This document shows positions 7,875 to 37,883 of a DNA stretch of 38,376 nucleotides, in pieces. The first letter of the stretch is position 1. Each line of letters starts with the position of its first letter. This DNA is from a virus (taxonomy: Duplodnaviria > Caudoviricetes): positions 1 to 38,376 of the IMG/VR virus record IMGVR_UViG_3300042343_001141. One strand, 5' to 3'. The notes beneath the pieces were generated by a model. It did not search any database. It saw only the letters and a program-made list of their open reading frames with translations, and was not told the DNA's origin. The translations under genes and the position numbers were made by a program.

Positions 7875-10736
7875 ATGGGCCGAGCATCATTCGGTGGCGC
7901 AGGGGACTATAGCGGTCTCTTCGCCTCTCTCTACAACCAGTCCGAATCCGAAGCAAAGCGCGCGACAGAGGCTGCTGCGACACGTTCGAAGCAAGCCCTT
8001 GCCGCTGCTGACGATCTTGCGTTTTCCGACTGGGAGTCAGGGAAGATCTCCGATGATGATCTCCTTGCATACATTGAACGCCGAGTATCGGAGTCTGCAG
8101 GAGATCCGACCGATTCAGCTCGATGGCTAAAAGTCCAGGAGCAATACCGCGTACAGATCGCTGACTCCAAGGCCGAATCTGCATATGCTGCAGGTGGCGA
8201 CCTTGCTGACTTGATCCAGTATTACGAGGCCAAGATGGCCGGCAAGCAGGAAGACAGCGGTGGGTACCGTGCTGCACAGCAGCGCGTCATCCAGCTTCGA
8301 GACCAGGCGTCAGAGGAGAGGTTCTCTAATGAGTTGAACAGCCTCCTTGAGCGCCGAGCTTCATCAAAGGAAGTCCTTGACTTCTACGGAAAGTGGAAGC
8401 AGTTGGCTCGCCCAGGTTCTTCTCTCGAGAACAAGGTTGACAACGCCTACACTGAGAAGAAGTCGCAGAACGTTCTTGAAGATGCAGAGACAAAGATGGC
8501 CAAGCTTCAGTTTGATTACACGCGCGGGAAGATTAGCGCGGCCAAGTATTACAACGGCATTCGAGACGCGGCCTCGGTGTATCAGACCTCAGATCCTGTC
8601 CGTTACTATCAGGTCCTTCAGTCTGCGTTCAAGACAAAGCAGGAAGGCTCCGGTGGTGGTGGAGGCGGTTCCGCTGTAACCAGTACCCTGAACTCCATCA
8701 TCAAGCTTGTTGACCAGTGGGAGGCCGCACAGGTCAATGGCTCCGCAACCATGTTTAACCCACTGACTGGTCAGGTTGAAACAATTACTGCGGACCAGAT
8801 CAGGAAGTATGACAACCAGTTTATCAAGGGCGCAACCAACATGGCCAGCGCCTACAAGGCGGGTGGCAACAATGGTGCTGCCGCTGATATCTACAACAAG
8901 ATTGGCAGCTTCATTGCAAGCCACGTGCAGGTTCACGTTGGATTCGAGCAGACCGATCGACTAAATCTTCTCCTCTCAAATGGCATTTCATCCATGAATA
9001 ATGCCCTTGACTCCAACGATGTGTATGCCCCAGAGAAGGTGGCCAAGGAACTACAGGGCCAAATCTCCACGTGGGCCAAGGGACTTAGCTACAAGCCTCT
9101 TGAAGAGGGCCAGACAGAGGCAGCCCCCTACGGTCCTCGCCGACTTCCAACTCAGGAACTTCTTGATTGGGCGGCCCAGGCCGAAATTGCCCTTGGCATC
9201 TTCTCCAACCCGGCTGCGACTGACGCGCAAAAGTCTGCGGCTAGGGACATGATTGACAACGCCCTGGCACAGAACCAGAACGTCGACGCCCGACTGTCCA
9301 GCGTTATTGGGGATCTTTCCAAGGTATTTGTTGATCAGGTGCTAATCCCGACAGGAGACGTCTCAAAGACAACTGATGCTCTTCGCACCGGCAAGGGAAC
9401 CGAGATTTACGATGCAGAGTCCGGCCGAGTATCCGTAGCGTTCGTCCAGGCAACCAGCACTACAAGGGGCGAAAGGGCACCTGACGGAAGCGTAACAATG
9501 AAGCCGGTCATCGAAAACATCCTCGTTGATGATTCCGGGAAGCCAGTCCTTCAGGGCGGCCAAATCATTGCCGACGTCCTTGTCGACGTTAACGACAGCG
9601 TCAAGAAGATGCCAGTCGTCATTAGCCCGGCCAACCTCCCTATCTACAACGCCTTCTACACCAGTGGGAATAAGAAGGGCAACCCCGTAACGCAAGATGA
9701 CTTGAACAAGGCGACCGAGGCAGACTTCCTCGAGGGAGGAACTTATACAGTTAAACCAATTCCAACTCAAGCGTATTCTATGCTTGACTCCAAGACTGGA
9801 AAAACTTGGTATTATATGCCCACCATCAATGGGCAGCCCGGTGGATGGGTTGAGATGGATCAGCTTAAGTTCGGATCTGATGCACTTCAGTTTGGCAATT
9901 TTACAATTGTTTCCACGGATAAGTCTGGAGTTGTGGTCCCACCATTCACCAAGATTCTTCCTGCCGTGTACATTGGCAGCAATCCAGAGGGTGCTCAGAA
10001 CATTCTTGATAAAGACCCATCGCTTCGAGGTTCTCTTGTTCAGGTTGATGGAACTGGAAATATTGTTCCAACCGCTGATACCTCCGGGGTCTACTACAGC
10101 CCTTCGGCTTATGGAAAAATTGGGACAAGCCCTCGCGATCAGATCAACGCACGAGACAGTTGGTGGAATGTCGAAACAGAGGAAGAGATCCGCAGGAATA
10201 AGGTCCGGGATTACAACAACTCAATCATTAAGTTCCGGGCTGGAGAGCGCGAAGACCTTGGGATTTCCAAGCCCTCAGGGGCGCTTCCGTTTGGCATCGG
10301 TATTGGGGCAGGAATGCCAACGCTTCTCGATGCGGCAAAGGCTATCGGTGTTTCCATCCCAAGCCAGGCTCCATCTGGTCGTGGTGCACCTGCACCAGCG
10401 CTTGGAAGCGAGTATGCCGGAATCAACCGCGCCGCTGCCCTTGCGGCGCAGGCGAAGACAAACGCGCTCACCCCGACGATCAAGCCGGCAACTGGTGGAT
10501 CAGACTATCTTATCAATCTTGCAAACGCCAACGCAGCAAAAGCAAAGTTTACTGTTCCAACCAGCTCGTCTGGTAAGCCGGGAACTTTCCCTGGTCTTGA
10601 TAGCGGGTCTCTGCCATATGCAACACCAGCAACTAGCACCACTAATGTAGAAACCTCTGCCCAAAAGGCAGCAAGGATTAAGTCAGAACAGAGCTCATTG
10701 ATTCAGTTCCGGGCTGGTGAGAGGAACATGAAGTAA
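7875..10736 (+). CDS. Putative internal virion / ejection protein (953 aa)
   Basis: Helical A/Q/E/K-rich N-terminal half, Gly linker, low-complexity C-terminus. Lies between the portal and the giant protein and is coupled to both. Function inferred. Confidence 0.6.
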   Translation: MGRASFGGAGDYSGLFASLYNQSESEAKRATEAAATRSKQALAAADDLAFSDWESGKISDDDLLAYIERRVSESAGDPTDSARWLKVQEQYRVQIADSKAESAYAAGGDLADLIQYYEAKMAGKQEDSGGYRAAQQRVIQLRDQASEERFSNELNSLLERRASSKEVLDFYGKWKQLARPGSSLENKVDNAYTEKKSQNVLEDAETKMAKLQFDYTRGKISAAKYYNGIRDAASVYQTSDPVRYYQVLQSAFKTKQEGSGGGGGGSAVTSTLNSIIKLVDQWEAAQVNGSATMFNPLTGQVETITADQIRKYDNQFIKGATNMASAYKAGGNNGAAADIYNKIGSFIASHVQVHVGFEQTDRLNLLLSNGISSMNNALDSNDVYAPEKVAKELQGQISTWAKGLSYKPLEEGQTEAAPYGPRRLPTQELLDWAAQAEIALGIFSNPAATDAQKSAARDMIDNALAQNQNVDARLSSVIGDLSKVFVDQVLIPTGDVSKTTDALRTGKGTEIYDAESGRVSVAFVQATSTTRGERAPDGSVTMKPVIENILVDDSGKPVLQGGQIIADVLVDVNDSVKKMPVVISPANLPIYNAFYTSGNKKGNPVTQDDLNKATEADFLEGGTYTVKPIPTQAYSMLDSKTGKTWYYMPTINGQPGGWVEMDQLKFGSDALQFGNFTIVSTDKSGVVVPPFTKILPAVYIGSNPEGAQNILDKDPSLRGSLVQVDGTGNIVPTADTSGVYYSPSAYGKIGTSPRDQINARDSWWNVETEEEIRRNKVRDYNNSIIKFRAGEREDLGISKPSGALPFGIGIGAGMPTLLDAAKAIGVSIPSQAPSGRGAPAPALGSEYAGINRAAALAAQAKTNALTPTIKPATGGSDYLINLANANAAKAKFTVPTSSSGKPGTFPGLDSGSLPYATPATSTTNVETSAQKAARIKSEQSSLIQFRAGERNMK

Positions 10737-13700
10737 TGGGACTGCTTGACAAGACGCGAAGTTCTGGGAGTGGTGCTTCGTATGGTCAGTCAAATAAGTT
10801 TAACATTCCTACCCCGGAGCCAGTAGACCCGAACGCCCTCAACATCGACCCGTCGTCCAACGGCCTCAACATCGCCCCGTCGTCCAACGGCCTGAACATT
10901 GGGCCGATCCGTCAGTCCAGAAGCCAGTCAACTCCGTGGGAAGATCGAGGTGTTCCTGAGCGCGCAACGTATAACGCATTCGCCCCGGGATCTGGACTTC
11001 CGGGGGCAAGATCAGGATACCTTTCATCCCAGACAAACGCCTATAAAACCACAGGACTTGATTTATCAGGAGCAGCTCCGGTGGCCGCTTCTGGACTTGA
11101 GACTGCCTTTAAGGCTCCAGGATACGCTGCAGAACGTCCTCTTGCTGCGGTTAACATGATTACCAGGGGCCAGGGTGAAAAGGGCGCTATTGATGTTGCG
11201 ACCGATATTATTCGAGCAACTCCCTTGCTCAATGAACTGGTTGGCGGTTTCGGAAACTTCCTCAACGGAAATGCTCAAACAGCGTTCATTAACTCCTTTA
11301 CAGCCTCAACTTTGCTTCAATATCGAAAAGATATTGAATCCGGAAACCTTTCTATGAAGACTACAGTTGCCAACCCGAACGGCGGGTTTCAGACACTTGG
11401 AGAGTTTATAACTAGCGTTAAGAAAAAGGGATTTACCGACCAAGACATCTCCGACCTTTTTGCCGGTAAAAAGGGTACCTTTGACTTTGGCGACAGGGAA
11501 AAGGGTTACATTATCTCAGACAACGGAATTGTTGACATGGGTCTACAGATTGCTCTTGACCCTACGCTTATTCTATCTGCCCCGATTAAGCTTCTTTGGG
11601 CTGGATTCAAAGGACTTACTGGTGGCTTTAAAGCTGCACAAATCTTTACCAGCGCTGCAAAGACGGCACCTATCCTTAACAAGGCAGCAGAATCTGCGCA
11701 CGCTGTATCAAACGCGTGGCAGACTGGTTCAATGGCAGTCGGCAACAATGCCTATCGATTGACACTGCCTGGGTACCGAACGGCGATCAAAGAGTCTATT
11801 ACTGGAACTAGGATTGGAACGACGGCAGAAGTCGCCGGTGGAGTTCTTAAGGGAGCTGCGAAGTCTTACGGTCGCGCTCTTACCGGCCGTGTTACGTACG
11901 CTGGATACACTCCAAGCTTGTACCAGAAATACCTTATCTCTTCTACCGCGTTCACCGCCGGACAGGCGGGTCTCGGGGCAGCAACTGAGTTAATTACAAA
12001 TGGCGACGAAGATAACTTCTTTGTTGGCGGCTTGTACAGGTTTATCAACGACCTCGAGGAAGAGAAGCCACTATCTGATAAGTACCTTGCCTGGAATGTT
12101 GTTTCAGCATGGAAATACCCATACAAAGCCGTAACTTCCTCTGCTAAAGGTGCAACTGTTAAGAGGGGCCAAATTGAACTCCGTCGACTTTATCAAATTG
12201 ACAAAGCACTAATTACGCGCCTATCTGACGATATGCCTAATGCAGACAAGGTAAAATACTCCGCTCGCGTTGCATACGTCAAAGATCGATTTGGCGGGGA
12301 CTACGCATGGAATTCTTTTAAAGCACAAATCCTTCGGTATATTTCATACCATGGATCGAGCCTTCACGACGTCAAGGGCATTGCCCCATCTCTTGGTGAC
12401 GCTTACAGGGTCACCCCCGGAAGCATGCCGGCTTATGCAATGCACGGTGAAATGCTTTCAAGGGTAATTGATGATCACCTTGTAAGGCTTATCGATGATG
12501 GGCAAATCCCCCCTGGCGCAATTGACGAAGCTTTTGATGCTTGGGTTGGAAATCTACGTGGGGTGGAAGAAATTACCGGTGGAGTCCAGGCAAAAGTTTC
12601 CGGGTCTGGCGTTATTGATAACTGGGTCAAATTCCTTCCCCAAGCAGAAAACCTCTGGGCAATAGGGGACAACTATGGCAAAGTCGTTCTTAAAAATTTT
12701 GACGGTGTCTTTGCCAAGGAACACTGGCTTGGTCTTCGGGCAGAGCTTTCCGCTGCGGCCGTTAATGGAAAGATTAGCGCATCAAAGCTTGAAGAAATTA
12801 TCCAAGAAAATTCTGCGATTCTTAGCCCTGAGTCTGCCCAAAACGCCAACACGTGGAGAGAATATCTTGTCCGGGGAACCGACGAAACTTTTGAAAACCT
12901 TGACTCGATTATTCAAAAGGAAATTGCGGAAGCTCCAACCCTTAACGAACTTACCGGGCCGTGGGGCGCGCGCGAGGCTGCTGCCCCTGTCGATGACCTT
13001 GTAGTTCCTCGAGGTCCTGTCAAGGCTGACGGAAGCCCAGATTTCGACTGGTCACCAGATGCTACGGAGATCTTTGTCTCAAGGTTCCGGGATAGGATTA
13101 AGGCCAGAGTTGGTCTTGAGGGCGACCTTAGTGTCAAGCAAGCTGTCGCCGCCCGCGCAGACGAGACGGTGTCAGTATATGAAGAAAGAATTGGCAAGCA
13201 CCTCACTGACCACGGATATACTGTAACAACTGCCAAGCCGGTTGTCGGCGTGTGGCAGAAGAGCGCAGAGCCGTCGATGCATATCGTCTTGCCGTTCCGT
13301 GGTCCTAAAGTACCGGTTGGACCAAGAGATCTTGCAATAGTACTAAAGGGGCCACGAGAAGCTGCAGTTATTGCACTTAAGGGAGGCACCAGGGTCCTCG
13401 ACGACCAGCAGGACGCGGTTCTTCTGGTTCTGTCAAAGACGGCGCAAGAGGCTTCCGGAGCCGCCCCGAACTGGCACAGGATGAGCTTCTCGATTGGCCG
13501 GGCCATGAGCTTTGAAGAATCCCAAAAGGTCGTTGACGCAATTTCAGATTCGTATGGGGCCATCGGCTCCACGATTGACCGTGAGGCTGGAACAATCCAG
13601 ATCATGGCCAAAATTGCAGACCTTAGCGGGCCACAGGCCCGAGCAAGGTCCCTTGTCCTGTCAAAGGCAATTTCAGAACTTACTGGTGGCGTAGCCCCAA

Positions 13701-16700
13701 CAAAGAAGGTTGAAGGGGTGTATGCTGAGCTTATTGTCAACGACCTCAAGGGTGAGGGAGTTTCATATCTAGGAAAGCCGGAGGTAACAGTCAGTGGAAT
13801 TGAACAATCAGCAATTGCCGGAGCAAACAGCGGAGACGCCAGGTTCTTCAGGGCCCTCGGAGATTCTGCAGAACTTCGTCCTGCCGGAATGGTGGCCGAC
13901 GGAACAGGAACTGCAGGCCTCTCTGGCGCCGACGACGCAGTTTTCCGAGGAACAGCAGGTGACCTTGATCGTCCCTTCTCCCCGTCCAACTTCTCGTCGG
14001 TAACAAAAAGTCTTTCTAAGGAGACACCGGGTACGCCGGAATACCAGGCGCTTCAAGATGAAGTTCTTGATGAACTATCCAGGGTTGTAACTCCAGCCGA
14101 AAAACAGCGTGTTCTTGGGGCTCTTGGGTCTGACATTTCTAGGCTTCAGAGAACCACTGAATCCGCGCGTATTCGCGCGGCAGAGGAGATGGCCGAGCAG
14201 CAAGCTTCGCGAGTCGGAGAATTTTCTAAAGGGGTCAAGCAAGCCTTCAACACGAGCGACGAAGAGGCAAATGCGCTTGCCGAGCTGTGGGACGCGGCAA
14301 TGCGATCCGAGGCTGCAGTCACCAATCGAACGGTTAAGGATGTATATGACAGCGTGCTCTACGGAGTCATGCGCGGGGGTGACGTAAACCCAGATGCTCT
14401 ATTTGCCAAAGAGTCTGGAGTCCTTGCTGATAAGTTTGCCCGGGCAAAGACGCCTGAAGGTCTTGAGCGCGCCATCCAGGCAGCGACAGAATTCAGGCCA
14501 ACCGACGACATGGTGGCTCTTGGGAAAAGGCTAAAGGACGAGAGGCTTTCGGGGTATCATCCGGTTGAGGTCATCCCTGGAAGCTCGCTCAACCCTGGGG
14601 CCACAGACATTGCACTCCCGGGAGGGATGGAGTTCCTTGCAAACCCTGCCCCCTACTCGTTGGCAGACGAGGTTGTCATTCGCTCGCAGGGGATTGTCCC
14701 GTCGATGCTGCCAGATCAGATGCGATTCCAGCTTTACAGCAAGCTTTGGGCCGGAAAAACCGTAGACTTCTCTGACCCAGTCGATCTTGTGAACCGGATC
14801 TCATTTGCTCTTACAAGCGCAAACAAGACAGCGTTGCCAATTAATGAAGCTCAGTACATGGTCATTAGGGCAAGGGACCTTGACGATGTTGGACAGATGG
14901 CCTCGTTCGTTCGCAAGGCGCGAGAGCGAGGTGTTGCGGACAAGGACATGGGTCGAGAGATTATGCGTCACTACCGCATGTATCTCCCAGAGTCCGAAAT
15001 CTCCAAGTACCCGACCGCGCCTGGGGCAGACCCCAAGTTCCGTCAGGAAAACCTTCGCAAACTTGTTGGGCCTGATGGGTACTTCCCAAACCCCGACATT
15101 CGTATCGGCTCAACTAACCAGACGCAGGCGTACCAGCGCATTGCCATGATCTCTGAGTTTGCTGATTCTAACCCAAGTTGGTTCACTATTCGCGCAGGAG
15201 AGACTGCAGAGAATCTTGCCGACCGACTTCTGATGATCAAGGGGGTTGGGGTAAAAGTCGGAAACTTTGCTGTCGAGCTTGGGCAGCCAACCACTTTGAA
15301 TCGCGGCACCATTGACTTGCAAATGTCTCTTGACCTGTTTAAGGCAGCAGAGCAAAAGGGCGACCTCGCCGCACTTGTCGAACGGCTTAATGCTGTCCCG
15401 GGAGGCAAGGCCTACGCCGACACCATGGTTAAGGCGCTCCGGGGCGAGGCAGAAACGATTAACGCACCATTCCGATCTCTTGGCGTTAGGGCGAAGATGT
15501 CTGACGATCTTGAGCGTGCATACTCGGAGATTCCGGAAAGCATCCGAACACCTCGCAAGGACATCCCCGTTTACGGAGAAAGTCCAGTGCAGGTCATGGA
15601 CGAGTACCTCGGCGTTCTCCAGGCTGCAGAGACAGCGGCTATTCCGGGACTTGCAAACGTTGGTCGTGGTGCATATCAATGGTTCCGATGGGACGCCTTC
15701 CGTGGCAAGGTAGAACCACATTCGTTGCTTTACAAGAACGCAAACAAGCTCCCACGAGCAGACTTTAATGACGTCCAGAATGGCCTTGATACCCTTCGCG
15801 CGGCAGGGTTCACAAGGCCGACGGATGCTGTGCAGGCGTTTAATCCAAACCTTCTTTCCAAGTACTTCAAGAAAGATGGGGAAAAGGTCATTGGATCGAC
15901 TGAGTTCCTCGAGAATGGCCGAGCACTTATCAAGGGGTTTGAGGGTTCGAGCTGGACTACTGCAACCCATGAGTTTGCCCACGTGTTCCGTGGCACCCTC
16001 CTTAAGGGTGAGGCTCTTGAGACTGCTTCCAAGTGGGCTGGGGCTAAGCTTGATGATTCTGGTCGGTACGTGTGGACGCGCGCGCAAGAGGAGAAGTTCG
16101 CCGACGCGTTTAACGTGTGGCTCAAGAAGGGTAAGGCACCGATCAAGAGCCTTGTACCAGTATTTGAAAGGTTCCGCCAGTGGCTCCTTGGGCTATATGA
16201 TCGCGTTAGTGGCAGCGTCTATAAATTCTCCGACCTCAAGAAAAGTAGGCTAAGTCCAGAAATCGAGTCCACGTTTGAAAGCCTGTTCCGTCGAGGGGAT
16301 GATGCAGTCATTAGCCCAAGAAACAAAGACCAGGAAAGCCTCCTTAACATCCTGTCCAGGATGGAAGACGACCTTAAGGGAAGTGCCGGGCAGAAGGACG
16401 AGGCCCTTGCAAACATTGCCAAGGATGCTGAGGCTGAAAGGCTTGTCCCAATGCCGCGATGGCATCCAAGCATGAAGGGCGTTGATCAAGACCTTCAACT
16501 ACAACTCGCACCTTTTGGCGCTGATATCCTTAAAAAGGGGAAATACACCCTGTCTGAAGCGCCAAGCCTTGCGATCCCTACAGCGCCTGGTCAAGGCTAT
16601 ATTGCCCAAGTTACTCAGACCAGGACCGGGCTATACGATTCTTTGCTTCTTGACAATCCAATCGTTTCTGGCCCACTTCGATTTATTGACTGGCTGACAA

Positions 16701-18253
16701 AGCCAGTTGGCGCAGGTAAGAACTCAAATACTGCACGGCAGTTTTTGTACCGCGAGCTCCTGTCAAAGGGAGCTACGGTGGCCGAAGTCAACGGATTCCT
16801 TGCCCTCCTCAAGGAGTCCGTTGACGAGGCACTATTTATGGGACTTCCGGTCTACAAAACAATTGGTGCCGTATGGCCTTCAAAAATTAATGCAAAAGCA
16901 AAGATCGCCTTTAAGGCAGATGTTGTCAATAAGGTTGGAGAGGAAAACTTCTGGCAACTTGTCGATCGAGCACAGTCTCGATACTACCGGTACCTCGATA
17001 CGCAGGCAGGTGTTCCGGGGGCAAAGGGATTTGTCACTAGAGCGCTCAAGGATGTATACGAATCGTATCAGCCAACGAGGTTTTCACAAGGTGCTCGTGC
17101 CGTAAGCCGATTCGGATATCCGTTCTTCCGCTTCATGCTTGACCCTCGATGGTGGGCAATGAATAAATTTGAGGCAGACGTGATTAATGGAAGCAAGTAC
17201 GGCTTGCAGGCTACTCGCGTGCGCGGTGCAAACACTGCTCTTGAAGACGCGGCATACGCAACACATCGCCAGCGAGGCCTTCCTGTGATGGGTGCAGAAA
17301 TTGATGGAATCCCAACCTCCGTTCTTGCTGGGCTCGATTCGGGCTTCTCAGACATGAGGCGTCTGACCGGTTATGGAACCAGGGCCCTTGAGGTTGCTCG
17401 TGAACGAAACGGAGCGCAACTCCTCCGAGAGTTCGGGGTAAACCCGGGCACCGGAGAGTTTGAGGCGGTTGAGCAGGCCATCAACTTCATTGGCCAGCGC
17501 GACCCGATCATTCGGCGTCTTGGAGACGTTACACCAGAGCAGATGTTTGAAAGGGCAGATGCAATCCGGAAGAGGCTGGTTTCTTTGCAAAAGCAGCAAC
17601 AGGGAAAGCCTTTGGCCCAGATCCTTGACGAAGAACTATACGTATGGGACAAGAAGGGGCATCGTGCAGGCATGGAGGGAATGGCTGATGACATCTTGGC
17701 TGAGAACAGGCGAGAGATGTCCCCACTTCTGCAGCGTCTATATGAGCTAAACGAGTCTTCGTACGCTTCACACATTAGCATCTTGCGCGGAAATACTAAC
17801 CGATCCAACCTCGAAAGAGTTCTTAATAGCTACTGGCTGTACTGGCCATTTAGCTATCAGATTAAGGCCACCCGATGGCTGTACAACGTCCTAACTGATG
17901 CTGCCGGGGAGGGCACGCTGAAGAATGTGGTTCGACTAGAGCGACTACGCCAGATCCACATGGACCAATTTAAAAACAACAGTGAGTACGCTGCGGTGTT
18001 CGAGAACAATCCGTCACTATGGCGTACCGCACAAATGTTGATCCCTATTACCCCGGGGGATATCGGGGTAACCCTGTCACGAGGTCCAAGGTATCTTGGT
18101 GGCGCTCTTGGGGTCTTCCCCGAGTACGCTGCCCAGGACCCGCTCACGGCAGGATTGAAGATGATGGCACTAGGACCGAACTATACGCTCGGACTATTGT
18201 CAGAAATAGGACGAGAGGGGACATTTGATGTGCTCCCCTTCGTCGGAGATTAG
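10736..18253 (+). CDS. Giant polyvalent internal virion protein (2505 aa) with a zincin metallopeptidase and putative SAM-lyase-like and HhH-glycosylase-like domains
   Basis: HEFAH (15968-15982) followed by EEKFADAF..WL..GKAP...VFERFRQWL, the pattern of polyvalent-protein peptidases. LLMIKGVGVKVGNF...TIDLQM is HhH-like. VSRFR / GVWQKSAEPS / QQDAVLLV is SAM-lyase-like. Confidence 0.7.
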   Translation: MGLLDKTRSSGSGASYGQSNKFNIPTPEPVDPNALNIDPSSNGLNIAPSSNGLNIGPIRQSRSQSTPWEDRGVPERATYNAFAPGSGLPGARSGYLSSQTNAYKTTGLDLSGAAPVAASGLETAFKAPGYAAERPLAAVNMITRGQGEKGAIDVATDIIRATPLLNELVGGFGNFLNGNAQTAFINSFTASTLLQYRKDIESGNLSMKTTVANPNGGFQTLGEFITSVKKKGFTDQDISDLFAGKKGTFDFGDREKGYIISDNGIVDMGLQIALDPTLILSAPIKLLWAGFKGLTGGFKAAQIFTSAAKTAPILNKAAESAHAVSNAWQTGSMAVGNNAYRLTLPGYRTAIKESITGTRIGTTAEVAGGVLKGAAKSYGRALTGRVTYAGYTPSLYQKYLISSTAFTAGQAGLGAATELITNGDEDNFFVGGLYRFINDLEEEKPLSDKYLAWNVVSAWKYPYKAVTSSAKGATVKRGQIELRRLYQIDKALITRLSDDMPNADKVKYSARVAYVKDRFGGDYAWNSFKAQILRYISYHGSSLHDVKGIAPSLGDAYRVTPGSMPAYAMHGEMLSRVIDDHLVRLIDDGQIPPGAIDEAFDAWVGNLRGVEEITGGVQAKVSGSGVIDNWVKFLPQAENLWAIGDNYGKVVLKNFDGVFAKEHWLGLRAELSAAAVNGKISASKLEEIIQENSAILSPESAQNANTWREYLVRGTDETFENLDSIIQKEIAEAPTLNELTGPWGAREAAAPVDDLVVPRGPVKADGSPDFDWSPDATEIFVSRFRDRIKARVGLEGDLSVKQAVAARADETVSVYEERIGKHLTDHGYTVTTAKPVVGVWQKSAEPSMHIVLPFRGPKVPVGPRDLAIVLKGPREAAVIALKGGTRVLDDQQDAVLLVLSKTAQEASGAAPNWHRMSFSIGRAMSFEESQKVVDAISDSYGAIGSTIDREAGTIQIMAKIADLSGPQARARSLVLSKAISELTGGVAPTKKVEGVYAELIVNDLKGEGVSYLGKPEVTVSGIEQSAIAGANSGDARFFRALGDSAELRPAGMVADGTGTAGLSGADDAVFRGTAGDLDRPFSPSNFSSVTKSLSKETPGTPEYQALQDEVLDELSRVVTPAEKQRVLGALGSDISRLQRTTESARIRAAEEMAEQQASRVGEFSKGVKQAFNTSDEEANALAELWDAAMRSEAAVTNRTVKDVYDSVLYGVMRGGDVNPDALFAKESGVLADKFARAKTPEGLERAIQAATEFRPTDDMVALGKRLKDERLSGYHPVEVIPGSSLNPGATDIALPGGMEFLANPAPYSLADEVVIRSQGIVPSMLPDQMRFQLYSKLWAGKTVDFSDPVDLVNRISFALTSANKTALPINEAQYMVIRARDLDDVGQMASFVRKARERGVADKDMGREIMRHYRMYLPESEISKYPTAPGADPKFRQENLRKLVGPDGYFPNPDIRIGSTNQTQAYQRIAMISEFADSNPSWFTIRAGETAENLADRLLMIKGVGVKVGNFAVELGQPTTLNRGTIDLQMSLDLFKAAEQKGDLAALVERLNAVPGGKAYADTMVKALRGEAETINAPFRSLGVRAKMSDDLERAYSEIPESIRTPRKDIPVYGESPVQVMDEYLGVLQAAETAAIPGLANVGRGAYQWFRWDAFRGKVEPHSLLYKNANKLPRADFNDVQNGLDTLRAAGFTRPTDAVQAFNPNLLSKYFKKDGEKVIGSTEFLENGRALIKGFEGSSWTTATHEFAHVFRGTLLKGEALETASKWAGAKLDDSGRYVWTRAQEEKFADAFNVWLKKGKAPIKSLVPVFERFRQWLLGLYDRVSGSVYKFSDLKKSRLSPEIESTFESLFRRGDDAVISPRNKDQESLLNILSRMEDDLKGSAGQKDEALANIAKDAEAERLVPMPRWHPSMKGVDQDLQLQLAPFGADILKKGKYTLSEAPSLAIPTAPGQGYIAQVTQTRTGLYDSLLLDNPIVSGPLRFIDWLTKPVGAGKNSNTARQFLYRELLSKGATVAEVNGFLALLKESVDEALFMGLPVYKTIGAVWPSKINAKAKIAFKADVVNKVGEENFWQLVDRAQSRYYRYLDTQAGVPGAKGFVTRALKDVYESYQPTRFSQGARAVSRFGYPFFRFMLDPRWWAMNKFEADVINGSKYGLQATRVRGANTALEDAAYATHRQRGLPVMGAEIDGIPTSVLAGLDSGFSDMRRLTGYGTRALEVARERNGAQLLREFGVNPGTGEFEAVEQAINFIGQRDPIIRRLGDVTPEQMFERADAIRKRLVSLQKQQQGKPLAQILDEELYVWDKKGHRAGMEGMADDILAENRREMSPLLQRLYELNESSYASHISILRGNTNRSNLERVLNSYWLYWPFSYQIKATRWLYNVLTDAAGEGTLKNVVRLERLRQIHMDQFKNNSEYAAVFENNPSLWRTAQMLIPITPGDIGVTLSRGPRYLGGALGVFPEYAAQDPLTAGLKMMALGPNYTLGLLSEIGREGTFDVLPFVGD
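10841..10894 (+). repeat. In-frame 27-bp tandem duplication (NIDPSSNGL / NIAPSSNGL)
   Basis: aacatcgacccgtcgtccaacggcctc followed by aacatcgccccgtcgtccaacggcctg, 2 mismatches. Confidence 0.9.
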
Positions 18254-27534: not shown

Positions 27535-28287
27535 ATGACGTTTACTGTTGCTCAGGCCCTGAACGAGTACATCAGGTCCACATCCAAGCCACGTCAACCT
27601 GACGGGATGTGGCACCCATCCGGCCTGTACGGCTGTGATCGCAAGACCATCTACGAGGTCAGGGGCACTGCCCCGACCGACGACCGGGACGACCGTAGCT
27701 ACCGCATCCTTGAGGTTGGGCAGATCATGCACGACTTCATCCAGGGTGCGTTGAAGCACTCGAATACCTACGTGGCCCAGGCGTGGGACGAGGTTAAGAT
27801 TAACGCTGCCGACATTAAACTTGTTGGCTCAGTCGATATGCTTGTGCAGCACCACGACAAATCGTACGAGGTGCTTGAGTTCAAGACGATCAACAGTTAT
27901 GCATTCAAGTACAAGGAGCTCCCAAAGGAAGAGCACGTCGGACAGGTGCAGGCGTACCTTCATGGGCTTCGTTACTACGGCGGCATCGTCAACGAAGGAA
28001 CGCCGCAAGAGCACGCCATCGAGCCACTTGGTTCGGACCTTACCAAGGCCCGAATCATCTATGTCTCGAAGGATGATATGATGATGGAGGAGTACCCGGT
28101 CGAGTGGACTGCCGAGGGCGACGCTGACCTGATCTCCCGCATCAATCGGTTGGAGTCGCACCAGTCTTCTGGCACCTTGCCAGAGCGGCTCAAGCCGGAG
28201 GTTAAGAAGGGTAAGCTGCAGCGCAACTGGCTCTGCGGATATTGCCAATTCCAGACAAAGTGCTGGGATGAAGACAAGGAGGCATGA
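27535..28287 (+). CDS. Cas4-like PD-(D/E)xK exonuclease (250 aa)
   Basis: HPS...CDRK, G..MH, GSVD...LEFKT, Q...Y and C-terminal CGYCQFQTKC (1+3 Cys arrangement). Confidence 0.88.
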   Translation: MTFTVAQALNEYIRSTSKPRQPDGMWHPSGLYGCDRKTIYEVRGTAPTDDRDDRSYRILEVGQIMHDFIQGALKHSNTYVAQAWDEVKINAADIKLVGSVDMLVQHHDKSYEVLEFKTINSYAFKYKELPKEEHVGQVQAYLHGLRYYGGIVNEGTPQEHAIEPLGSDLTKARIIYVSKDDMMMEEYPVEWTAEGDADLISRINRLESHQSSGTLPERLKPEVKKGKLQRNWLCGYCQFQTKCWDEDKEA

Positions 28288-28868
28288 ACATGGCAGACGA
28301 TCGACTCAGTAATTACATCGAGGTCAAGGACCGGGTGGCAGAGTTCTTCAAGCGATACCCAGACGGAAGCATCCAGACAGAGATTGCTTCGCTCTCGGAT
28401 AAGTTGGTGGTGGTCCGCGCCTATGCGTACCGCAGCCCAGAAGATGCGCGACCTGGAGTAGACTACAGCTCGCTCGAGATCCCTGGAAAGACTGGGTTCA
28501 CGAGAGGCTCAGAGCTTGAGAATGCGGCTACCTCTGCGGTGGGACGTGCGCTATCTCTTGGTCTTGGTATCGCAGCGCACCGTGGCATCGCCTCCAAGGA
28601 GGAGGTCGCAGTGAAGCAGGCGCAGGGTGAGGCGAAGGCCGCCTCTTCGACCGGCAAGCTGGCTACTGACGCCATGAAGCGCATGGTGTTTGCAGAGGCA
28701 AAGAAGCAGGGCCTTGGCGAAGAGCAGATCAAGGCGCTGTTTGCGTTGGTGGCAGGGACTCCTTCAAGCGAGGGCCTGAGCTATCAGCACGTCGACATCA
28801 TCCTTGAGGAGCTGAAGACGAAGGGCACGCGGTTCCAACTCGCATCTGATACGGCCAAGGTCGGCTGA
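28284..28868 (+). CDS. Putative ssDNA-annealing recombinase (194 aa)
   Basis: YIEVKDRV..F...YPDGSIQTE and LENAATSAVGRAL; lies between the exonuclease and the helicase. Confidence 0.7.
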   Translation: MNMADDRLSNYIEVKDRVAEFFKRYPDGSIQTEIASLSDKLVVVRAYAYRSPEDARPGVDYSSLEIPGKTGFTRGSELENAATSAVGRALSLGLGIAAHRGIASKEEVAVKQAQGEAKAASSTGKLATDAMKRMVFAEAKKQGLGEEQIKALFALVAGTPSSEGLSYQHVDIILEELKTKGTRFQLASDTAKVG

Positions 28869-30942: not shown

Positions 30943-31286
30943 AGGATGCTGCTGCCTCCCGGAGGGGGCGCAACAATCGCAAGCGTGGCAACGCGCTTGA
31001 GCTCTGGGCATGCAAGCAGCTCGGCATCAGCCGGACTGGGATGTTTGGAAGCAAGGTTGACGGTGGAAAGCATGACGAGTGGATTGTGATCCAGGTCAAG
31101 TCTGGTCCATCCAACTTTAGCGAGAAGGTATGGGGCCTTCTCAACTCGCTCACTCCGGTGGCGGGTCAACAGCGCGGTGTCGTCTTCGTAAGTGCAGACG
31201 GACCGGGTAAGCCGAAGCGAGCGTACATTGCGCTCGATCTCGGAGAATTTGTAGATAGCGTAGGAGGAAAAGAAAATGGCGAGTAA
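30939..31286 (+). CDS. Putative Holliday-junction resolvase / PD-(D/E)xK nuclease
   Basis: Start at the ATGA overlap at 30939. NRKRGNALE...D...IQVK resembles Hjc-like phage resolvases. Confidence 0.65.
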   Translation: MKDAAASRRGRNNRKRGNALELWACKQLGISRTGMFGSKVDGGKHDEWIVIQVKSGPSNFSEKVWGLLNSLTPVAGQQRGVVFVSADGPGKPKRAYIALDLGEFVDSVGGKENGE

Positions 31287-31626
31287 AGGAACGTTCTTGG
31301 CAACGGTAGGAGCAGTCGGCGGCACGCCGGAGACGAAGGATACCCAGAAGGGTAAGATCGTAACCTTCCGTCTCGCAGTGCAGACAGGATATCCGGAGAG
31401 CAAGGGCGATAAGGGGCCAGACCCAATCTGGTACGACGTCGCCGTGTTCAAGGAGGCCCTGCAGCCGGTGGTCCTCGAGGCCATCTACAAGGGTTCGAAG
31501 GTCGCAGTCGAAGGCTACACCTCGGTGCGTGAGTACCAGGGCAAGGCCTACCATAACATCGTGGCCAGCCGGGTTGGCATTGTCGAGTGGCTCAAGGCTG
31601 ACGGTAGCGCGGCGGTACCATTCTGA
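31276..31626 (+). CDS. ssb: Single-stranded DNA-binding protein (116 aa)
   Basis: OB-fold motifs FRLAV, WYDVAVF and KGSKVAVEG, with C-terminal VPF. Confidence 0.9.
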   Translation: MASKGTFLATVGAVGGTPETKDTQKGKIVTFRLAVQTGYPESKGDKGPDPIWYDVAVFKEALQPVVLEAIYKGSKVAVEGYTSVREYQGKAYHNIVASRVGIVEWLKADGSAAVPF

Positions 31627-33863: not shown

Positions 33864-33896
33864 AAAAAGGCCCCAGGTCATACGACCTGGGGCCTT
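33864..33896 (-). terminator. Terminator at the convergence of the two arms
   Basis: aaggccccaggtc-atac-gacctggggcctt, 13-bp stem, with the U-tract on the minus strand. May act in both directions. Confidence 0.85.
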
Positions 33897-33928
33897 CGTA
33901 CAGGGGAGAACGACCCTGTTGGTGAATA

Positions 33929-35729: not shown

Positions 35730-35824
35730 CAGAGCACCTCCTTCCCTAGTCCACTTAGAATCAAGGCCGCGAAGATAATCAACGCTAGTAGCCTCATGCG
35801 CTTTGTGTCCTGTTCATACTCCAT
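35729..35824 (-). CDS. Small single-TM peptide (31 aa, absent from the ORF track)
   Basis: AGGGGAG SD directly after ribozyme HHR1. MEYEQDTKRMRLLALIIFAALILSGLGKEVL; TGATG coupling to the next gene. Confidence 0.65.
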   Translation of the reverse strand: MEYEQDTKRMRLLALIIFAALILSGLGKEVL

Positions 35825-35849
35825 GTGTGTTCTCCCCTGTTCTCAAGGT

Positions 35850-35908
35850 GTCTGCCTCATCAGCCCCGGGAGACTATCCCCGGAGGACGCCCCGAAGGGC
35901 GTTTCGGC
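35850..35908 (-). ncRNA. Type II hammerhead ribozyme HHR1
   Basis: Minus strand: gcc GAAA cgccc-uucg-gggc GUC / cuccggg-gauagucu-cccgggg CUGAUGA ggc agac. Loop GUCU pairs with tail AGAC. Predicted cut 35886/35885. Confidence 0.93.
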
Positions 35909-36135
35909 TACCAGACTTCGCTCTTCTTGGCCTGGCTCTTCTCAGCGTAGTGAGCACGCAGCCGCGCGTCAATCCTGATCTTGATCTCTTCGCCAATCAC
36001 CCACCCGGTAACGATCGCGCCGACCGTACCGAAGAGGACCAGAACCGAGAGCCCAAGGTGGCCATACACGGCGTACGCCACCGCTGCTGCCACTGTGGCG
36101 AGCAGGTATGTTGCGATAAACTCCTTCACGTTCAA
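35908..36135 (-). CDS. Two-TM membrane protein (75 aa)
   Basis: GGAGG SD, TTG start, two hydrophobic helices; its TAG runs into HHR1. Confidence 0.75.
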   Translation of the reverse strand: MNVKEFIATYLLATVAAAVAYAVYGHLGLSVLVLFGTVGAIVTGWVIGEEIKIRIDARLRAHYAEKSQAKKSEVW

Positions 36136-36404
36136 ACCTCCATCTCTTGCATGCGGGCCGCGTACTCCACGCTGCCCTTCGTGCCTTCCTTGACCTCGTA
36201 CCGGGACGGCACGTAATTGCCCCAGTAGTCGGTGTGGCCCTCCTCGCCAAGGATGCAGATCCCTGCCTCAATGGCGTACGCGGCCGCGCGTCCCACCGAT
36301 CCCTGCATGCGCCATGCCTGACCGGTGTCAATCAACTCCTGCAACGCTTCAACCGGATCAGCGGCCTCTTCGCGCAGGTACTTGAGCGTGTTCTCCGTGA
36401 ACAT
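36132..36404 (-). CDS. Conserved phage hypothetical protein (90 aa)
   Basis: AGGAG SD after HHR2; QELIDTGQAWRMQGSVGRAA is a motif seen in small early phage proteins. Confidence 0.8.
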   Translation of the reverse strand: MFTENTLKYLREEAADPVEALQELIDTGQAWRMQGSVGRAAAYAIEAGICILGEEGHTDYWGNYVPSRYEVKEGTKGSVEYAARMQEMEV

Positions 36405-36426
36405 GTTCTCTCCTGTTCTCGTGAGG

Positions 36427-36483
36427 GTCTGCCTCGTCAGTGCCGGGAGACTATCCCCGGCATACGCCTCGCGGCGTTTCGGC
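36427..36483 (-). ncRNA. Type II hammerhead ribozyme HHR2
   Basis: gcc GAAA cgcc-gcga-ggc GUA / ugccggg-gauagucu-cccggca CUGACGA ggc agac. Predicted cut 36463/36462. Confidence 0.93.
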
Positions 36484-36683
36484 TATTGGTACACCCCGGT
36501 CCCGTTGCACCCGCACGCTCCTTCGTCGCACATTGCGCCTTCAGAGAGCAGCATGGCGCAGCCATACTTTTCTGCGCGGTGCTCCTCGTGCTCCTCGCAA
36601 TACCACTTAATCTCACCGCTCTCGTTGTTGTCCGAGTAGTAAGCGGCCTCTTCGCCGCACCTACCGCACCTGTTATCCGTCAT
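36483..36683 (-). CDS. Small Cys-rich protein (66 aa)
   Basis: AAGGAGG SD; CGRC...CEEH...CDEGACGC; its TAG runs into HHR2. Confidence 0.72.
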   Translation of the reverse strand: MTDNRCGRCGEEAAYYSDNNESGEIKWYCEEHEEHRAEKYGCAMLLSEGAMCDEGACGCNGTGVYQ

Positions 36684-36701
36684 CCCTCTATCCTCCTTCA
36701 G

Positions 36702-36905
36702 CTATTCTCCGTCGTGGATTCTGAGCCTGATAGGATCCTGCGCGTGCTTCTTGCAAAGGGCCACCGTAAGATTCTCATCCTTCCTCTTGAACTCAAGCAC
36801 AAAGAGGCCCTTCTTGCCGACCATCTCGTCGCATCCGGCATCGTCTGCGTTCAGGCCTTGGCACCTCCACGCGCTCGCGCTTAGGTCAATCACGATATCT
36901 GCCAT
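36702..36905 (-). CDS. Hypothetical protein (MADIVIDL..., 67 aa)
   Basis: Start moved to ATG 36905 behind AGGAGG; C...C...CKKH possible Zn site. Confidence 0.72.
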   Translation of the reverse strand: MADIVIDLSASAWRCQGLNADDAGCDEMVGKKGLFVLEFKRKDENLTVALCKKHAQDPIRLRIHDGE

Positions 36906-36919
36906 GTTCTCCTCCTGTA

Positions 36920-36982
36920 TCGCCTGCCTCATCAGTCCCGGGTGGCGACTCCGGGAGACGGCCCTGTCACGGCCGTTTCGGC
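36920..36982 (-). ncRNA. Type II hammerhead ribozyme HHR3
   Basis: gcc GAAA cggcc-gugacag-ggcc GUC / ucccgg-agucgccac-ccggga CUGAUGA ggc a ggcga. Loop UCGCC pairs with tail GGCGA. Predicted cut 36957/36956. Confidence 0.93.
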
Positions 36983-37269
36983 TATCTCAATGCCTGCTCA
37001 GCCTGTGCGACCTTGATCTCAAGGCCCACCGGCCAATGGTAGCCACCCTCGTAGGCTTTTTCAAGACTCTGAATGAACTCCTGTACATAAGCGTCGTACG
37101 CCATGTCGTCGTTGGTGTGGCGCGATACGGTGAGCCCTGCCTGCAGCAGGTCAACCTCGTACGGCGCATCGCTCTCGCGAGAAGTCCGGTAGATCACGTC
37201 CACGCCATGCTCGTCGCGTAGGTTCTGGATCCGGTCCCATAGAGCCTGTCCCGGCCTGTATCTGCTCAC
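36982..37269 (-). CDS. Hypothetical protein (95 aa)
   Basis: Start moved to GTG 37269 behind AGGAGG; its TAG runs into HHR3. Confidence 0.72.
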   Translation of the reverse strand: MSRYRPGQALWDRIQNLRDEHGVDVIYRTSRESDAPYEVDLLQAGLTVSRHTNDDMAYDAYVQEFIQSLEKAYEGGYHWPVGLEIKVAQAEQALR

Positions 37270-37286
37270 TTTGCTACCTCCTGTAT

Positions 37287-37362
37287 TCACCTGCCTCATC
37301 AGGCCGGGTAGGTGAGTCCCCGGCGACCGGTGCTGAAGGGTTGCCTATGCACCGGTTTCGGC
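37287..37362 (-). ncRNA. Type II hammerhead ribozyme HHR4
   Basis: gcc GAAA ccggugc-(15 nt)-gcaccg GUC / gccggg-gacucaccua-cccggc CUGAUGA ggc agguga. Loop UCACCU pairs with tail AGGUGA. Predicted cut 37325/37324. Confidence 0.93.
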
Positions 37363-37610
37363 TAGATGAAGTCCTGCCTGCCGATCGTGACCTCAAAGAA
37401 GCACGAACTGCAGAACTCCACGGTTTCTTTGCGTCCGTTCGCACCCTCCACGATGCACTCGTGCTGGATGCCGCCCGGTCGCTGAACGTATCCCCGGCTC
37501 ATGCAGCGTTCGCAGTTTCCGGGCGAGGCCTTGCTATGGGCTGTGCTCGTGAAACTCCTGTCCTCAGGTACGCGGACGATGATCTCCGGGATCCTCTTGA
37601 CTGCCTTCAT
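37362..37610 (-). CDS. Hypothetical zinc-finger protein (82 aa)
   Basis: AGGAGG SD after HHR5; CERC...CSSC; its TAG runs into HHR4. Confidence 0.75.
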   Translation of the reverse strand: MKAVKRIPEIIVRVPEDRSFTSTAHSKASPGNCERCMSRGYVQRPGGIQHECIVEGANGRKETVEFCSSCFFEVTIGRQDFI

Positions 37611-37620
37611 GCGACCTCCT

Positions 37621-37696
37621 GCCCCATGTCCTCATCAGCCGGAGTGGGGGGCTCTCCACGCCGGGACCGGCACGCCCGAAGGCGCACCGGTTTCGG
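37621..37696 (-). ncRNA. Type II hammerhead ribozyme HHR5
   Basis: cc GAAA ccggugcgcc-uucg-ggcgugccg GUC / ccgg-c-gugg-agagcccc-ccac-u-ccgg CUGAUGA gg acau ggggc. Loop GCCCC pairs with tail GGGGC; stem II is only 2 bp. Predicted cut 37665/37664. Confidence 0.87.
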
Positions 37697-37853
37697 TTGG
37701 AGGTCTGTTCTGTATTCACCTGTTCAGGGACTCTGGCCGGCTCCCCGGTGGCCTCTTGGATCTGGGCTCTCCGGTCACCCCGGCTCCCTCGTCCTCACTG
37801 GCCCCGGTGCTCTCGCTCTGCTTGCGGCGATTCGCACCGGTTCGTCTGCGTCA

Positions 37854-37883
37854 AGAATGCACCCTGCGAATAGGCCACGTCAA
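37854..37883 (-). promoter_or_regulatory. Candidate sigma70 promoter of the ribozyme-containing early operon
   Basis: Minus strand reads TTGACG, 18-bp spacer, CATTCT. The spacer shares tggccta...ggtg with the promoter at 34767-34795. Confidence 0.55.

Follow-up and report, generated by a model that had tools for sequence, protein, structure and literature searches.

The genome of a tailed phage from lake water carries five type II hammerhead motifs, each fitted closely to the translation signals of the genes beside it, and the question is why a ribozyme motif should be placed in this way. The motifs lie in IMG/VR record IMGVR_UViG_3300042343_001141, whose entire 38,376 nt were analysed and are referred to below as the window, where tandem copies flank one or a few variable genes of a phage operon. 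In silico analyses of the window and of its relatives indicate that each module is probably a portable joint made of a stop codon, a ribozyme and a Shine-Dalgarno sequence (SD), which would give mRNAs with standard ends and would also serve as a recombination point. The placement of the stop codon is a real, general rule of a known ribozyme class and is apparently unpublished.

All five motifs (HHR1 to HHR5) are located on the minus strand and have the CUGANGA core, the GAAA and an NUH cleavage triplet (GUC in four, GUA in one). Loops close off stems I and III, stem II is open (3 bp in HHR1 to HHR4, 2 bp in HHR5) and a pseudoknot of 4-6 Watson-Crick pairs, with at least 4 bp as the criterion, joins loop I to the 3' tail. 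Three motifs are above the 37-bit cut-off of the Rfam model RF02276 (Hammerhead_II), namely HHR1 (35846-35909, 61.4 bits), HHR2 (36423-36484, 49.1 bits) and HHR3 (36918-36983, 57.6 bits), while HHR4 (37285-37363) falls below it with 34.1 bits (E 0.0023). HHR5 (core 37696-37621) has no Rfam match, its full core, three stems and pseudoknot having been recognised by a structural script. Self-cleavage of the five motifs is predicted by analogy with other members of the class, for which activity has been reported in vitro and in E. coli (PMC3088659) as well as for D. vulgaris RNA (PMC8782182).

In the direction of transcription, the HHR5 module (37610..37696) comprises GAAA at 37694, a predicted cut after 37665 (GUC), CUGAUGA at 37638, a tail at 37626-37621, the SD AGGAGG at 37620 and an ATG at 37610; being the first of the array, it has neither an upstream open reading frame (ORF) nor a TAG. 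It is followed by the HHR4 module (37269..37364; TAG 37364-62, GAAA 37359, predicted cut after 37325, tail AGGUGA 37292-87, SD 37282, GTG 37269), the HHR3 module (36903..36984; TAG 36984-82, GAAA 36979, predicted cut after 36957, tail 36924-19, SD 36916, ATG 36905), the HHR2 module (36402..36485; TAG 36485-83, GAAA 36480, predicted cut after 36463 (GUA), CUGACGA 36440, tail 36430-27, SD 36414, ATG 36404) and the HHR1 module (35822..35910; TAG 35910-08, GAAA 35905, predicted cut after 35886, tail 35853-50, SD AGGGGAG 35838-32, ATG 35824). In HHR1 to HHR4, as a preliminary description of the locus had pointed out, the upstream gene ends in a TAG, the G of which also opens stem II (3 bp, GCC/GGC). 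In all four, this TAG is in frame and, counted from the G of GAAA, is at -5; the SD-led ORFs that it closes have 73, 66, 95 and 82 codons, respectively. An SD and a start codon occur at the 3' end of all five modules. The tail-to-SD gaps measured for HHR1 to HHR5 (11, 12, 2, 4 and 0-1 nt, the last being 0 in the GGGGC/GCCCC register) bear out the same description, which had put every tail 0-12 nt before an SD and that of HHR5 directly against it, and the corresponding distances from tail to start codon are 25, 22, 13, 17 and 11 nt. Its interval of 35825..37625 locates the array but leaves the core of HHR5 just outside. A scan of the window found no promoter-like or terminator-like site within a module. 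Since the four TAG-associated copies are paralogues, they do not represent four independent events and the independent evidence is that of relatives.

Relatives were sought in IMG/VR and GTDB, the search patterns specifying the core and the tail but not the stop positions; all counts are among the matches listed and concern the variants sampled, GAAAC...CUGAYGAG. Retaining motifs with three stems and the pseudoknot (345 of 347) and with at least 250 nt upstream, and removing redundancy, gave 293 motifs, for which genes were called by our own ORF rule (the longest upstream ORF or, as an alternative, an SD-led start). The stop of the longest upstream ORF was found at -9..-5 in 187 of the 293 (76/115, 84/134 and 27/44 in the three pattern sets) and at -5 or -6 in 133. 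The 187 proteins concerned fall into 176 families, and taking a single motif per locus left 143 stops at -9..-5 out of 229. The SD-led-start rule gave 171/293 near stops with 48 genes uncalled; the longest-ORF rule mis-called the gene upstream of HHR1. Two further subfamilies had near stops in 39/91 (GGC/GCC set) and 62/91 motifs. Of the 462 non-redundant motifs obtained by pooling, 279 (ca. 60%) have a stop within 3 nt of stem II, which it overlaps or touches in 196; an ORF is lacking in 25, and in 31 the longest one ends past GAAA. For randomly chosen positions in the same loci, the interval -9..-5 contains the end of a long ORF in 60 of 4388 cases, so that the stop position in homologous arrays is not random. 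Contigs carrying the label of Bacillota, Actinomycetota or another phylum likewise have stops so placed; this split by phylum is small (44 motifs) and relies on labels of metagenome-assembled genomes that are possibly mis-binned. An Rfam search of 20 array loci for other ribozyme classes found only Hammerhead_II.

The preliminary description had raised the question of whether UAG-CCGAAAC is conserved. As far as the TAG is concerned, this largely holds for the close arrays, those of the window and of the relatives designated L381, L013 and L402: in these four distinct arrays (a further one, L403, is identical to L402), 14 of the 16 internal motifs follow a gene-ending TAG at -5, the other two stops being at -16 and -23, and the first motif of the array has a TAG at -5 in none of the four, its core being intact. 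In wider relatives the stop codon varies, the near stops of the pooled set being TAA in 112 cases, TAG in 107 and TGA in 63, the background counts being 270, 248 and 492, respectively. The A and the G of UAG are themselves ribozyme positions, and the A at -4 is retained in 68 of 92 motifs without a nearby stop. When stem II has 2 bp, the peak is found one base over, with TAG at -4 (14) and TAA or TGA at -5 (32) in 46 of 85 motifs, the pattern used having fixed an A at -3, which favours these stop words but not their being in frame. Because any of the three stop codons may be used and a stem II shortened by one pair displaces the peak by one base, the stop tracks the edge of the ribozyme rather than a fixed ribosome register. 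UAG as a dedicated signal was rejected on these grounds and on that of the A at -4 being kept without a stop. The structure of a pseudoknotted hammerhead (Zhan 2024, PMC11300833) was also set aside, as it has another architecture and the part of that article consulted gives no explanation of the conserved A.

Genes end at the last stop that the ribozyme edge has to offer. The stretch between -4 and the cut lacks stops in all three frames in 229 of the 293 motifs; 64 have stop triplets within the ribozyme (in stem III), and six have a gene ending at one of them, two of these six being recognised as mis-parsed motifs on inspection. Stops are commoner at -8 (27) than at -7 (16), and after those at -8 a TAG or CAG comes next in 14 of 24 cases, which suggests that the unit carries its own, ancestral in-frame TAG.

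On the downstream side, 199 of 253 non-redundant motifs lead into an SD-led ORF. The arrangement is asymmetric, with a median gap of 0 upstream against a median of 9 nt from the end of the pseudoknot to the SD and of 22 nt to the start codon, the latter distance being at least 18 nt in 146/199 and at most 13 nt in 16/199. The footprint of an initiating ribosome reaches ca. 18-20 nt upstream of the start codon, so the pseudoknot would mostly lie just outside it. The competition between pseudoknot and initiating ribosome put forward in the preliminary description can thus not be retained as a general rule, and is possible for a minority of motifs that includes HHR5 and HHR3. A general masking of the SD by the pseudoknot was likewise rejected for the main subfamily, the SD and the tail overlapping in just 7/199. 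Better agreement was found with its other proposal, that cleavage standardises the 5' untranslated regions (UTRs): from the geometry, the predicted cut would leave 5' UTRs of near-uniform length (median 59 nt, interquartile range 55-67.5) and 3' tails of 20-41 nt (median 24).

Close relatives differ in the genes located between the modules. In the window, the intervals between ribozymes contain one, one, two and two genes, all on the minus strand: gene A (37362..37610, 82 aa), which ends in the TAG at -5 of HHR4 and is substituted in some lake variants; gene B (36982..37269, 95 aa); a two-gene cassette of genes C (67 aa) and D (66 aa) at 36483..36905; and a second one of genes E (90 aa, DUF7417-like) and F (73 aa, hydrophobic) at 35908..36404. 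L381, 98% identical to the window in the primase-like gene, matches it at 93% up to 36488, 3 nt before the TAG of HHR2, and again from 37354, inside the edge of HHR4. It has six motifs in all and three cassettes not found in the window, and lacks both genes C and D. Its stem I/tail halves have their matches in HHR3, HHR4 and a motif of L013, yet the stem III halves attached to them are different ones. The homologues of gene B in the window and in L381 (99 aa) both end in a TAG at -5, as do the first genes of L013 and L402 (79 and 68 aa, 52% identical). Of 11 joints in contigs from four lake runs, 8 have at least one end, and 5 have both ends, within a module; 13 of the 22 ends lie in 12% of the stretch. 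In one 4,891-nt lake contig, gene A is replaced between its SD and TAG, a hybrid ribozyme is joined near the cut and gene C is replaced. Two of those joints recur among 3 listed for four more lake runs, and loose ends in two runs have the end of gene F joined to the TAG of HHR3. As the edges of the same ribozymes enclose different genes in close relatives, the modules are likely swap points, for which L381 is, by sequence comparison, a support independent of the contig joints. No RNA dataset was found among the listed holders of near-identical DNA, two runs labelled RNA-Seq looking like DNA.

Taken as a joint, the unit would run from stop codon to type II hammerhead, SD and start codon and would cut the early transcript into mRNAs of one or two genes. 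After the cut, the upstream mRNA would retain its short tail as a GC-rich stem III hairpin, and the downstream mRNA would begin with a 5'-OH stem I/pseudoknot ca. 55-67 nt before the start codon, much as in RiboJ (see below); both structured ends may be protective. The two halves of the ribozyme would contact each other only via the 2-3 bp of stem II and the core, so that the products should part quickly and any 5' half should work with any 3' half. Recombination at shared words of 10-12 nt would for this reason be tolerated, the recombinants staying active. A gene running past the cut would give a non-stop mRNA, such as those of established tmRNA biology, and the conserved edge would supply the last possible stop. 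A spacer ahead of the ribozyme would have no role and would be lost, and the one behind the pseudoknot would be kept for the initiating ribosome. The stop at the edge would then result from avoidance of non-stop mRNAs by use of the last available stop, together with loss of the idle upstream spacer. A ribosome terminating on the edge would briefly unfold the core, an effect that would be tolerated and would perhaps aid product release without being the purpose; that the ribosome on the built-in stop additionally gates the cut, and so couples the release of each mRNA to translation, is conceivable but improbable. If the joint is real, phages have evolved a ribozyme-insulated, modular expression cassette for fast-changing early genes, and the modules would be compact, interchangeable natural parts for splitting operons. 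The placement rule and the natural gene-swap variants make the role of the ribozyme a simple question to address experimentally.

By its geometry, a ribosome terminating at the stop would extend over stem II and most of the GAAA, and the stops do sit where stem II and GAA would be covered. The placement might thus reflect a regulatory coupling, a possibility raised in the preliminary description, in which a ribosome at the stop blocks folding, the cleavage rate reports upstream translation and the pseudoknot competes with downstream initiation. Such a coupling would agree with a gap far tighter at hammerheads (within 3 nt of the stop in 173/232, median 0) than at terminator hairpins of the same loci (1/45, median 19), with the sharp fall of stop counts beyond -9, and with a pseudoknot situated within 13 nt of the start codon in HHR5, HHR3 and half of the 2-bp subfamily. 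It would also agree with a more than 100-fold drop in activity on loss of this pseudoknot, reported in a paper that also describes its formation by the 3' strand on its own (PMC3088659). However, the peak follows the length of stem II and the letters available rather than a single register, the first motifs of arrays have an intact core without any upstream gene, and the pseudoknot is in most cases too far from the start codon. The same placement is moreover seen across contigs labelled as different phyla, between which coupling differs (PMC7858274), and ribosomes disfavour terminators close to stops (PMC7858274). Since ribosomes drive terminators away from stops, these hairpins do not provide a neutral control, which leaves room for compaction. 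Regulatory coupling appears rather unlikely overall.

Plain compaction would have the ribozymes process the transcript as already proposed, idle spacers being deleted and repeat-borne swaps arising as a by-product. Gene-gene junctions in the same loci, a crude control, are indeed also within 3 nt or overlapping in 244 of 554 cases, stop counts decay as if from a wall, and spacing is looser in Streptomyces phages. By itself, compaction accounts neither for the one-sided tightness, nor for the fact that homologues differing in their C-terminal tails come back to the same TAG, nor for the in-frame excess at -8 over -7; it is partly contained in the joint described above and, as a full explanation, seems distinctly unlikely. 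A last possibility is ribosome-assisted turnover, which would suit a stem II of just 2-3 bp and a geometry in which the edge of the ribosome would extend over stem II and GAA without arriving at stem III, the terminating ribosome stripping mis-paired upstream RNA or separating the products at stem II so that cleavage is efficient and irreversible. Yet a helix of 2-3 bp should separate unaided, the first motifs have no upstream ribosome, and tandem arrays are cleaved efficiently in protein-free transcription (PMC3088659), which makes this explanation very improbable.

The portable joint itself has to face several unfavourable observations. In the 2-bp subfamily, the median distance from pseudoknot to start codon is 13 nt and the value is at most 13 nt in 34/63; these motifs, like HHR5 and HHR3 in the window, which are of the same close-pseudoknot kind, do not resemble a clean insulator. 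Folding with ViennaRNA, which was run without pseudoknots, gave SD unpaired probabilities of 0.04-0.72. The stop rule is not universal, as seen in the GGC/GCC set with its 39 near stops in 91 motifs and in counter-examples at -22, -29 and -11 in Streptomyces phage Alvy and at -19 and -28 in Dulem virus 39. The scans were confined to the matches listed and to GAAAC...CUGAYGAG variants, and the genes were called by our own ORF rule, with PHROG matches for only 34 of 150 tested. Contig joints at 85-90% likeness may stem from paralogous repeats or from other organisms, several of the rows correspond to the same event, and any repeat attracts recombination, whether selected or not.

Among known systems, the modules resemble the prophage arrays (RF02276) of Perreault et al. 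2011 (PMC3088659) in their fold, in the loop I/3'-tail pseudoknot and in the tandem copies around one or two variable genes. These authors described clustered hammerheads flanking non-constant genes and proposed that long phage transcripts are processed into operon- or gene-length mRNAs, as would be the case here; circular mRNAs were not detected by them. The present analysis adds stop abutment, one-sided spacing and the exchange of genes at the modules: the accessible text and supplements of that paper do not mention stop codons, SDs, ribosomes or recombination, although images of the supplementary figures might show the overlap. In their review, Weinberg et al. 2019 (PMC6765202) regard the role of bacterial and phage self-cleaving ribozymes as largely elusive, and none of 'stop codon', 'Shine', 'recombination' and 'insulat' occurs in the text available. 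No report of the stop rule or of a joint role was found in the literature searched, most subscription papers being outside its reach.

The closest functional parallel for gene shuffling is provided by the PeSLs of T4-type phages (Arbiol et al. 2010, PMC2839356), repeated intergenic units of hypervariable early regions that have an SD and a start codon at their end. Recombination between PeSLs deletes, inserts or replaces small unknown genes and yields chimeric units, and excised mini-circles have been shown (PMC2839356). The modules share with them a 3' end formed by an SD and a start codon, and also the gain, loss and replacement of genes with breakpoints in the units, here from comparative evidence. 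In contrast to a PeSL, which combines a promoter with a terminator stem-loop and acts in transcription, the unit of the window is a predicted self-cleaving RNA that carries the upstream stop; having no promoter or terminator inside, the modules are not PeSLs, though they may work alike. RiboJ (Clifton et al. 2018, PMC6206723) is comparable in another respect, since its cut leaves a standard, hairpin-led 5' UTR before the ribosome binding site, with higher mRNA and protein levels reported, and the predicted cut would here leave a structured 5' UTR of near-standard length. Unlike RiboJ, which is synthetic, placed at a promoter junction and devoid of a pseudoknot tail, the modules are natural, repeated inside an operon and would also set the 3' end of the upstream mRNA.

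Upstream of HHR5, a structured leader RNA (37697..37850, minus strand) is predicted from a folding z-score of -2.95 (stem III of HHR5 included) and from covariation, with 11 of 36 pairs changed on both sides among five sequences, ca. three of them independent; the leader is noted in the window and in L381, L013 and L402. It contains the invariant words CAGGTGAATA and GACCTCCAACC and has no Rfam match. The HHR5 cut would release it, and with ca. 185 nt if so freed, it is a candidate new non-coding RNA. The first ribozyme of each array (37610-37696 in the window, and those of L381, L013 and L402) appears as a distinct, position-conserved type that has a 2-bp stem II, a long stem III and a tail directly against the SD.

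The plus-strand genes of the window encode a terminase, a portal, a major head protein, a DnaB-like helicase, a primase-like protein and a Cas4-like exonuclease; the capsid protein is 28-31% identical to the best cultured-phage matches listed, and DNA near-identical to the window is present in lake-water metagenomes. The array belongs to a convergent minus-strand operon of small genes of unknown function, close to the contig end, which from its position and content would be an early operon. A candidate early promoter (TTGACG, 18 nt, CATTCT; 37854..37883, minus strand) was read by eye; its -35 is TTGACA in L381 and L013, and the window copy is weak, being absent from the consensus-scan list. 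A terminator-like hairpin detected by the terminator scan (33866..33897, minus strand) would close the operon. Gene F (35908-36129) precedes the last ribozyme in the window and follows it in L013 and L402, in which it ends without a ribozyme.

Pfam, PHROG and Atlas searches of the array genes for cargo function returned only DUF7417/phrog_3908 for gene E. The PHROG matches among the 150 genes ending at ribozymes of relatives (drawn from 279) extend in several cases to the last residues and include one anti-restriction protein and one antitoxin, too few for the arrays to be considered anti-defence islands.

Two relatives deserve mention. A 4.3-kb stretch of IMGVR_UViG_3300017605_000570 contains an array of at least 15 type II hammerheads from the 2-bp subfamily, mostly with stops at -4 or -5 and the SD immediately behind the tail. 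Streptomyces phage Alvy (NC_054669), a cultured phage, has four unannotated type II hammerheads at 1488, 1557, 2932 and 5067, two of them in tandem; its annotated coding sequence (CDS) 84 and the start of CDS 89 overlap hammerheads and may be mis-calls. Despite its loosely placed stops, Alvy would lend itself well to experimental tests.

Elsewhere in the window, regions 27535-28868 and 31276-31626 encode the Cas4-like exonuclease, an unknown protein (phrog_23738) and a single-stranded DNA-binding protein, which possibly form a phage recombination set acting on short shared words. Finally, an ORF of 2,505 aa is located in the virion region (10736-18253).

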